Assembly: GCA_944325525.1 (NCBI GenBank)
Contig: CALVAK010000009.1
Span: forward strand, 23,574-87,573
DNA length: 64,000 bases
Direction: 5' to 3'
DNA from: Candidatus Gastranaerophilales bacterium
GTDB taxonomy: Bacteria > Cyanobacteriota > Vampirovibrionia > Gastranaerophilales > Gastranaerophilaceae
Notes under the pieces: generated by a model
Databases searched by the model: none
Told to the model about the DNA's origin: nothing
Seen by the model: the letters and a program-made list of their open reading frames with translations, nothing else
Translations under genes and position numbers: made by a program
In this document: in pieces, positions 1,778 to 2,100 of the stretch
Layout: every line of letters begins with the position of its first letter
Numbering within the stretch: the first letter of the stretch is position 1

Positions 1778-1969
1778 ATGACTACTTCAGATACAATTAC
1801 AGGAATGTATAATGAAGCGAAAATTGAATATGATAATACCGCTATTTATAAAGATGATAGCGGAACAAGGCTAATAACAGCCTTGGGGAATTATAAAGTC
1901 TGTAGGTTGGGTTTTAACCCAACATCAAGAAATTGGGATATTGAATCAAAATTAGCAAAAGTTGCATAA
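1778..1969 (+). CDS. small ORF 1 of array; shares an N-terminal module with ORFs 3551 and 5709 and runs into the repeat element
   Basis: Strong RBS AAAGGAG upstream. Motif IEYDN..IY..D.GTRLITALGN is shared with the other two small ORFs. The C-terminal VCRLGFNPT is encoded by the repeat at 1900-1924. Confidence 0.4.
   Translation: MTTSDTITGMYNEAKIEYDNTAIYKDDSGTRLITALGNYKVCRLGFNPTSRNWDIESKLAKVA
1900..1924 (+). repeat. GTAG-hairpin element copy 2 (forward), forms the 3' end of small ORF 1
   Basis: CTGTAGGTTGGGTTTTAACCCAACA. GTAG at 1902-1905 is followed by the hairpin GTTGGGT-TTTA-ACCCAAC at 1906-1923. Positions 1897-1925 are identical to 3943-3971 (29/29). Confidence 0.9.
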
Positions 1970-2075
1970 AGTTACGAAATAATGTAATTAAGAACAAAGG
2001 GAACAATGTTAATGAACAATGAAAATAATGAAAATAAGCAAAATATAGAACAAGAACAAAATAATAACAAGAAAA

Positions 2076-2100
2076 TTGTTGGGTTAAAACCCAACCTACA
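2076..2100 (-). repeat. GTAG-hairpin element copy 3 (reverse), 4 nt upstream of the ATG at 2105
   Basis: TTGTTGGGTTAAAACCCAACCTACA. Confidence 0.9.

Follow-up and report, generated by a model that had tools for sequence, protein, structure and literature searches.

In a 64,000-nucleotide stretch of a Candidatus Gastranaerophilales genome (assembly GCA_944325525.1, contig CALVAK010000009.1; hereafter the window), two perfect copies of a short repeat face each other across the junction between a small open reading frame (ORF1) and the second of three tandem paralogs encoding Kelch-repeat proteins, which raises the question of what they delimit: a replicating doublet, an invertible switch or a remnant. 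The forward copy, TGTAGGTTGGGTTTTAACCCAACA, occupies 1901–1924 and its exact reverse complement 2077–2100; the two 24-nt arms are 100% complementary, lie 152 nt apart and have their GTAG ends outermost. A sequence-only reading of the window had recognized this inverted doublet, but had set each arm one base off (1900–1924 and 2076–2100, enclosing 151 bp). We consider it about three in four probable that the doublet is a head-to-head dimer of GTAG-type repetitive extragenic palindromic (REP) sequences that lacks its REP-associated tyrosine transposase (RAYT), that it arose from cassette decay and strain-specific rearrangement, and that it resembles a REP doublet forming a hairpin (REPIN) in geometry only and is not a switch. 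The features reported for the enclosed segment were borne out, namely the ORF1 stop TAA at 1967–1969, an AAAGGGA motif at 1996–2002 and ATG codons at 2006 and 2012, followed by the conserved ATG at 2105, which shares the frame of ATG 2006 at a distance of 99 nt. The description of the segment as intergenic was inaccurate, since it contains the final 15 codons of ORF1 as well as codons 1–24 of the 506-aa ORF that gene callers delimit as paralog 2.

The arms belong to a family, termed here REP-A, with the structure AG[T/C]C[C/T]-GTAG-GTTGGGTT-TT-AACCCAAC-A, that is a GTAG head and a hairpin of 7–8 bp; in the clade of the window the extended consensus is AG[T/C]C[C/T]-GTAGGTTGGGTTT[T/A]AACCCAAC-A. 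The terminal GTAG and the palindrome GTTGGGTT/AACCCAAC forming a stem-loop are the first hallmark of GTAG-type REPs. Allowing up to three mismatches to the 23-mer, we found five copies in the window versus none in dinucleotide-preserving shuffles, located at 386–408 (−), 1902–1924 (+), 2077–2099 (−), 2190–2212 (−, two mismatches) and 3948–3970 (+). All five lie within 386–3970 and, together with a degenerate relative, all are in the first 6 kb, where the composition is 25–26% GC (27–38% elsewhere in the window). A scan covering one genome per species located the core GTAGGTTGGGTTNNAACCCAAC at at least 119 loci. Proteobacteria and some other metagenome-assembled genomes (MAGs) carry it in tight doublets, GTAG outside, with spacers of up to ~20–25 nt; it is mostly single in the low-GC clade of the window, that of Gastranaerophilales, Melainabacteria and Vampirovibrio MAGs. 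At the low-GC loci, open frames of at least 300 nt hold 30 of 103 REP-A copies (29%), as against 1066 of 1300 random sites (82%), and this repeated, mainly extragenic occurrence is the second hallmark of GTAG-type REPs. An Rfam search of window positions 1–7000 returned tRNA-Pro only.

The partner enzyme of REP-A was found in related loci, which are designated below by L numbers. In L111, REP(+) at 5484–5506 and REP(−) at 6099–6121, with GTAG outermost and 593 nt between them, flank a 177-aa ORF that belongs to the Pfam family Y1_Tnp (PF01797, E = 1.7e-11); its sole PDB match was the E. coli transposase TnpA_REP (4ER8, E = 1.5e-22), in an alignment that covers the HUH motif and the region of the catalytic Tyr. 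Because inverted copies surround a Y1_Tnp gene in this locus, we assign REP-A as a GTAG-type REP with a RAYT partner in the sense of the published definitions (PMC3733652, PMC3116915, PMC5581495), and more RAYT genes or remnants lie beside REP-A in L095, L033, L046, L064 and L119. Judged from the sequences, REP-A is the single-strand hairpin site of a RAYT-type Y1/HUH transposase. Within the 64-kb window, tblastn with three RAYTs from related loci gave no significant match, and phmmer with an approximate YafM sequence gave nothing significant either.

Convergent REP-A pairs form a graded series. Intact RAYT units read REP, ~45 nt (…AGAAAAGAGAGTTGCRTAAGRTA…AAA) and then ATGAATTAT (MNY…), as in L111 with its spacer of 593 nt. 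The spacer is 247 nt in L064, where the RAYT carries an internal deletion, 198 nt in L046, with an internal deletion as in L064 between other outer flanks, and 126 nt in L033, where 8 N-terminal RAYT codons are joined to the C-terminal end; in the window (154 nt in this series) and in L107 (146 nt) only a block of the 5′-untranslated region (5′-UTR) and a relic of the start are left. In the window the left arm (REP-A, 1901–1924, + strand, GTAG first) is preceded by the conserved 5′ flank AGTC at 1897–1900 and encodes, in frame, CRLGFNPT near the end of the truncated ORF1. Alignment to intact RAYT units places a relic of the RAYT-gene 5′ flank, together with the ORF1 tail and stop, at 1925–1995 on the + strand. 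Within it the block AAAGTTGCATAAAGT at 1958–1972 matches the 5′-UTR block of the L033 RAYT exactly, and the ATG at 1982–1984 (AATAATGTAATTA), counterpart of the RAYT start, is directly followed by TAA; the L107 relic keeps CATAAAATGAATTAT and then likewise TAA. The left arm and the ~70 nt after it thus represent the left end of a gene-less RAYT cassette.

The right half of the doublet has a different source. Positions 1996–2076 (+) comprise the Shine–Dalgarno (SD)-like AAAGGGA (1996–2002) and an orphan leader of the L107 type, designated B1 (MLMNNENNENKQNIEQEQNNNKK), which is in frame with ATG 2105 and is followed by the right arm (REP-A, 2077–2100, − strand, read on the + strand as VGLKPNLQ). 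B1 is similar to the L107 leader with z = 6, and the latter runs directly into a Kelch-type gene. The layout of L107 is the same as that of the window over ~190 nt, in the order REP(+), relic, ribosome-binding site (RBS), leader and REP(−), and the two doublets are ~70% identical over 221 nt with differing outer flanks. We also considered B1 as a degenerate RAYT 3′ end and rejected this, as local alignments against shuffles were unconvincing (z = −0.4 to 2.6). The doublet is thus a cassette left end lying beside a leader REP. The left half is a RAYT cassette end whose transposase gene was deleted down to the start codon. The right arm is the REP carried by the N-terminal leaders of a Kelch-repeat membrane-protein family, and this leader, B1, has lost its own gene body; in the window strain, B1 now abuts paralog 2 in frame.

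Comparison of the interval in related genomes, a check proposed in the sequence-only reading, revealed four architectures. The strains were retrieved by exact-protein look-ups, and their shared parts are 98.95–100% identical. Strain A, that of the window, is represented by five independent, colinear assemblies, and window positions 1692–9000 are 100% identical to an ENA contig from the 'BRZ' sample series. Strain B (L134/L135) is 98.95% identical over window positions 1–2104 and has the doublet in the same orientation. Its breakpoint lies directly after 2104: REP(−) and AGCT are followed by half a REP with (ACAGGCT) repeats and then by the sequence that lies upstream of paralog 3; both paralog 2 and ORF2 (2105–4051) are missing, and B1 forms an orphan 56-aa ORF. 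At this junction (L134 4327–4361) the half REP (AAAACCCACCCTACAGGCT) precedes two more ACAGGCT units, an odd small tandem. Strain C (L126–L128) has a paralog 2 that is 99% identical and starts MTDENKK, has no doublet, and carries instead a ~480-nt upstream region ending in a 5′ module otherwise seen before paralog 1. Its partner ORF is full length (375 aa), and homology to the window ends at 3945, two bases before the REP(+) at 3947 (GGAGT|tggaag versus GGAGT|ctgtagg), which identifies the 145-aa ORF2 of the window as a truncation at the REP. In strain D (L132/L133), 99.3% identical over 1619–1898, homology ends two bases before the REP(+) at 1901; beyond this breakpoint (1898/1899) follow inverted copies of another repeat, REP-B, around a second RAYT and next a long-loop REP-A, which in the window follows ORF3. 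Three of the four mapped breakpoints (1898, 2104 and 3945) are thus within 4 nt of a REP-A arm, and the fourth, at ~2125, lies where the first 21 nt of paralog 2 equal those of paralog 1, unlike the 99%-identical strain-C allele.

The comparison of strains A and B further revealed uneven divergence. The 152-nt interior of the doublet holds 9 of the 22 differences found over 2104 nt, corresponding to 5.9% versus 0.67% elsewhere (Fisher p = 9e-6), so that it diverges nine times faster than its flanks, while both arms are invariant; 7 of the 22 differences fall within 1937–1976. A further 6 of the 22 lie in the first 33 nt of the paralog 1 leader (window 301–334 versus L134), a second hot spot that suggests gene-conversion patches among leaders.

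These data bear directly on the possibility of a fimS-type switch, in which a recombinase would flip 1925–2076 between the 24-nt repeats and alter the 5′ end of paralog 2 together with the ORF1 tail. Short perfect inverted repeats around 100–300 bp beside a gene start are the layout of fimS-type invertons, and the perfect 24-nt repeats here conform to it. Breaks close to the arms, at 431 and 2046, were also seen in several assemblies; repeats and heterogeneity are both possible causes of them. In-silico inversion had been said to give ORF1 a hydrophobic tail, and our independent translation of the inverted segment yielded the same TIFLLLFCSCSIFCLFSLFSLFINIVPFVLNYIIS. However, the orientation is identical in the five window-strain assemblies, in the diverged strain B with its 9 substitutions in the segment and in the distant homologous locus L107 (L120–L125, L134, L135 and L107), and an orientation-independent look-up found no variant. 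The ORF1 protein of the inverted state was absent from 5.8e9 proteins, among which only the normal 63-aa and the strain-D forms were found, and the 473-aa product of paralog 2 from ATG 2105, without the start provided by the segment, has no exact record. The window has 51 ORFs that reach 150 aa or more; Pfam detected no tyrosine or serine recombinase in the 40 of them that were searched, and the neighbours are housekeeping genes. Promoter-like consensus hits numbered 52 versus 48.9 in shuffles, with none on the + strand in 1925–2076. Furthermore, and unlike in invertons, the interior is the least conserved part of the locus, and the arms are REP hairpins with a different known partner enzyme. 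A scan of JGI metagenomes for the left junction, which would have revealed either orientation, gave 0 matches and is uninformative, as the organism lies outside that collection. With one orientation, no recombinase found in the 40 ORFs scanned, promoter hits at background and a fast-diverging interior, the switch proposed in the sequence-only reading is very improbable.

The other proposal made there, a REP/RAYT origin, stands for the element, with its GTAG head, its hairpin and the RAYT flanked in relatives, but not for a REPIN unit. Described REPINs have spacers of tens of nt; those of P. fluorescens SBW25 (Bertels and Rainey 2011) have a first-residue spacing of 71 bp (group GI), form a hairpin as whole units and occur in many copies, and decay of a RAYT unit to a doublet is the accepted origin of REPINs (PMC3116915). 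The doublet resembles them in its two inverted REPs, in the supposed origin from RAYT/IS200-like unit ends and in arms that are more conserved than the spacer. It differs in that the 152-nt spacer is not self-complementary and consists of the RAYT 5′-flank relic and a gene leader, in that each arm occurs alone elsewhere, and in having one related unit (L107). In the DNA minimum free energy (MFE) fold only the arms pair (−24.9 kcal/mol, z = −4.7), the interior remaining a largely unpaired loop apart from a few short hairpins of its own; the inverted orientation of a REPIN is therefore present, and its short spacer and whole-unit hairpin are not.

A related possibility is that the ~200-bp doublet is an active non-autonomous element, mobilized by a RAYT like a REPIN or a miniature inverted-repeat transposable element (MITE), that provides genes with a portable start of translation and a leader by grafting. 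Its geometry is that of RAYT-flanking REPs, convergent pairs with spacers of 92–250 nt recur in the clade, L046 and L064 share an identical RAYT-deletion doublet but not its flanks, the L107 relative likewise has other outer flanks, and the arms are invariant over a drifting interior. On the other hand, excision of 1901–2100 would put ORF1 against ATG 2105 with no promoter or RBS, and strain C indicates that paralog 2 is normally preceded by the ~480-nt upstream region. Both halves are also found apart, each in a paralogous context of its own, the spacer neither is short nor forms a hairpin, and the window holds a single such unit and no RAYT within 64 kb. We regard such an element as unlikely.

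The pairing of the arms might alternatively matter in the transcript, where a duplex of 24–27 bp would serve as an RNase III-type substrate or as a barrier that tunes the ORF1 and paralog 2 cistrons. The RNA MFE fold of 1890–2110 does pair the arms (−52.7 kcal/mol, z = −6.9), the single hairpins reach −10 (left) and −9.4 kcal/mol (right), and REP dimers may form one large stem-loop, REPs being able to affect the expression of flanking genes (PMC3733652). This pairing is, however, automatic for two identical REPs; strain C has an intact paralog 2 without the doublet, and the degenerate REP in paralog 2's own leader (2190–2212) has lost its hairpin (−5 kcal/mol, z = 0) while the ORF is retained. 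An RNA-level role as the primary explanation thus appears quite improbable, more so than the mobile element; as a secondary effect, this role, or a variant in which each REP hairpin acts singly on mRNA stability or translation, is compatible with a decayed REP dimer. A final candidate was an integron-like attC site, whose outer heptamers would be recombination cores bracketing ~150 nt in a cassette array. ACCCAAC fits RYYYAAC and GTTGGGT fits GTTRRRY, and the genes are arranged as tandem cassettes; yet a single short palindrome accounts for the heptamer match, L′/L″ complementarity is missing from the interior, no integrase was found among the 40 window ORFs scanned, and elsewhere a RAYT gene is flanked by this same sequence. 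This RAYT linkage effectively refutes the attC reading, to which we assign next to no probability.

Several points weigh against the decayed REP dimer as well. RAYT-flanked REPs are present in related genomes and not within the 64-kb window, and the homology of the relic is short, comprising a 15-nt block and the ATG context. The same RAYT-deletion doublet between different outer flanks in L046 and L064 means that some doublets may move as units. No single deletion accounts for all four haplotypes. Orientation was read from consensus assemblies, in which a rare inverted subpopulation may be hidden. Finally, the use of ATG 2006 is inferred from the gene call and an SD-like motif.

This last point concerns the working that we propose for the dimer. 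Paralog 2 (2105–3526 on the + strand from the conserved MSDENKN start, alternative start 2006) is probably translated from ATG 2006 with an RBS from the doublet interior, as the AAAGGGA motif precedes ATG 2006 and no such motif is found at ATG 2105; the protein would thereby gain 33 N-terminal residues including VGLKPNLQ. In the window strain paralog 2 stands without the 5′ module that precedes it in strain C, and it may share a transcript with paralog 1 and ORF1. The arms could pair in that transcript as a 24–27 bp duplex. At the DNA level, the REP arms could act as joints of rearrangement, either by RAYT cleavage or through short homology. A speculative extension, to which we give a low probability, is that REP-A and REP-B arms with their RAYTs are the joints of modular exchange at a surface-protein locus of gut Gastranaerophilales. 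REP hairpins would be the points at which this locus gains, loses and rejoins N-terminal leaders, promoters together with their 5′ modules, and whole cassettes of Kelch gene and partner ORF. If true, such exchange would generate strain-level diversity, and a leader REP kept as a joint would be conserved as DNA while its reading frame was not.

The leader copies of REP-A are relevant to that point. In Kelch paralogs 1 and 2 the 5′ coding leader contains the (−) copies, just ahead of the hydrophobic segment, whereas the (+) copies fall within the 3′-terminal parts of the small ORFs, reading VCRLGFNPT. At the same leader position the REP is read in all three frames, as CWVKTQPT (paralog 1, 386–408, −), VGLKPNLQ (right arm) and LLALNPTY (degenerate copy with two mismatches in paralog 2's own leader, 2190–2212, −), in intact ORFs, and two compensating 1-nt indels on either side of the REP restore the frame between paralogs 1 and 2. 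The conserved feature of the leader REP is the DNA and not the peptide. The TTTAAA variant of the loop removes a third-frame stop codon that is present in the TTAAAA form.

REP/RAYT systems are reportedly the subject of work by Nunvar in 2010 and Ton-Hoang in 2012. The system described here resembles E. coli TnpA_REP with its REPs and bacterial interspersed mosaic elements (BIMEs), and the GTAG REP families, in GTAG followed by a short palindrome and in inverted copies around a transposase homologous to 4ER8. It differs in its host, a non-photosynthetic relative of Cyanobacteria with a very AT-rich genome, and in the predominance of singlets. GTAG REPs form head-to-head dimers with the GTAG termini outside and spacers mostly of 20–100 bp, their intragenic copies include N-terminal ones, and RAYT genes are flanked by REPs (Di Nocera et al. 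2013, PMC3733652); REP-A shares with these families the head-to-head dimers and the mostly extragenic, partly intragenic copies. RAYTs have been pictured as single-copy genes (PMC5581495), whereas Gastranaerophilales MAGs hold several RAYT copies or remnants, at least two REP/RAYT families and a third REP type (L095). Like other palindromes translated in frame, such as the Rickettsia palindromic elements (RPEs) and intragenic GTAG and CGTC REPs (PMC3733652), REP-A is translated at tolerant ORF positions, here in C-terminal tails and, in Kelch proteins, immediately ahead of the membrane helix; the window differs in its three-frame leader REP with compensating 1-nt indels.

Two further kinds of palindrome-bounded element invite comparison. 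MITE-like 'PATE' elements are internally deleted derivatives of IS200/IS605 insertion sequences (ISs), and Neisseria has intergenic mosaic elements bounded by dRS3 repeats. The present system shares with the former a set of transposase genes with internal deletions of graded extent between intact hairpin ends, and with the latter palindrome-bounded modules that lie beside variable surface-protein loci and differ by strain; the ends in the window are RAYT REPs and not IS ends with a TnpB partner, and no phage or integrase link was seen. The dRS3 repeat corresponds to the REP family CGTC-1 (PMC3733652).

In a limited literature search we found no paper linking Gastranaerophilales or Melainabacteria with REP or RAYT. 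Modestly new are therefore the presence of REP/RAYT systems, comprising at least two REP families, graded RAYT decay and translated REPs, in non-photosynthetic relatives of Cyanobacteria that are uncultivated, and, to the same modest degree, the occurrence of several RAYT copies or remnants together with multiple REP families, the three-frame leader REP and REP-bounded haplotypes in near-identical strains. The known picture of REPs is unchanged by these findings. For annotation, the site should be recorded as a REP/RAYT footprint and not be listed as a phase-variation switch. Four architectures at one locus in strains that are ~99% or more identical make it well suited to the question of whether structural variation is driven by REPs and RAYTs, and the leaders offer a test of how a hairpin repeat survives inside coding sequence in three frames.

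The first 6 kb of the window consist of three tandem cassettes, each with a Kelch-repeat protein of ~500 aa that has an N-terminal hydrophobic segment, followed by a small ORF. Paralog 1 spans 302–1765 and paralog 3 4164–5687 (Pfam Kelch_6); an exact protein look-up with paralog 1 from ATG 302 returned no record. The small ORFs are ORF1 (63 aa, 1778–1969, +), which ceases to match the strain-D allele at 1898, 2 nt short of the REP arm, ORF2 (145 aa, 3560–3997; 375 aa in strain C) and ORF3 (5709–5951). An N-terminal RLIxALGN block is common to the three and to the family of the 375-aa protein (L126 1547–2674), which carries a GIGSSMAG motif, of which ORF2 is the REP-truncated allele and for which a Pfam search of the full-length protein found no family. 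ORF1 and ORF3 resemble shorter N-terminal fragments of paralogues, and the Kelch protein is paired with such an ORF in every cassette. The REP-A copy at the truncation point of ORF2 (3947–3970, +) is followed by a second RAYT-flank relic at 3971–4018, and this REP(+) with its relic (3947–4018) has no partner arm.

The paralog 1 leader REP (386–408) ends a conserved '5′ module' of ~350 nt (window 48–408), made up of the upstream region and the MSDENKN...WWKK leader, that is 75–95% identical across MAGs and strains (mostly 83–95%). Copies were found at L019 4661–5004, L024 5702–5913 and 6754–7045, L065 2454–2757 and L127 307–616; the gene bodies behind them differ or are missing, and the similarity of the module ends at the REP. 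Its upstream part (48–301) was also considered as a degenerate RAYT gene and showed no protein similarity. Leaders are more conserved than bodies, two proteins (P0014 and P0015) matching paralog 2 over the leader only at 60–62% identity. A terminator-like hairpin, GCTGATGTGGTAAAGACCATATCAGC then ATTTTGCGTTTT (window 240–275), lies 36 nt upstream of ATG 302, is kept in five module copies and is precisely missing from a sixth (L024 copy 2), and may be a leader attenuator. Covariation was not detected in the 5′-UTR hairpin 240–265, the copies being too similar, and Rfam gave no match.

Further variation was seen within the REP families. A degenerate second doublet in the window (5977–6141), which adjoins the tRNA-Pro gene at 6218–6294, consists of a 'long-loop' REP-A variant at 5977–6069 and an inverted GTAGGTTG partner at ~6120–6141. 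In the long-loop form an insert of ~55 nt, itself a hairpin, sits in the loop, as GTAGGTTGGGTTT-[GACTGCTTTTTCCAAAATCT..GAAAAATG..CCCAT]-AACCCAAC, with L119 reading GTAGGTTGGGTTT-[55-nt insert]-AACCCAAC; examples are L119 2689–2760 and L064 229–300, and many copies occur in L019, L024, L064, L065 and L119. REP-B (GTAGGGTGCAATTTTTTGCACC), with its own RAYT, is found at this locus in other strains (L132 350–981, L126 2671–2692) and is absent from the window, and in L095 a third REP type (GTAGGGTAGACT..AGTCTACC) flanks a RAYT. Among the loci listed, an identical 20-nt REP-A core occurs in Cyanobacteria relatives, Gamma- and Betaproteobacteria, Poribacteria, Desulfatiglandales and 70%-GC MAGs labelled Azospirillum, a wide phylum spread that may reflect RAYT transfer or convergence.

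Synteny of the tRNA-Pro neighbourhood with L046, as a RAYT home locus, was considered and orthology is not claimed, as the anticodons differ (UGG versus CGG). RAYT units or remnants often lie a few hundred bases from tRNA genes, for Phe, Ala and Pro-CGG in the related loci and Pro-UGG in the window, the sites being L111 6200–6275, L119 3110–3184, L046 2099–2174 and window 6218–6294.

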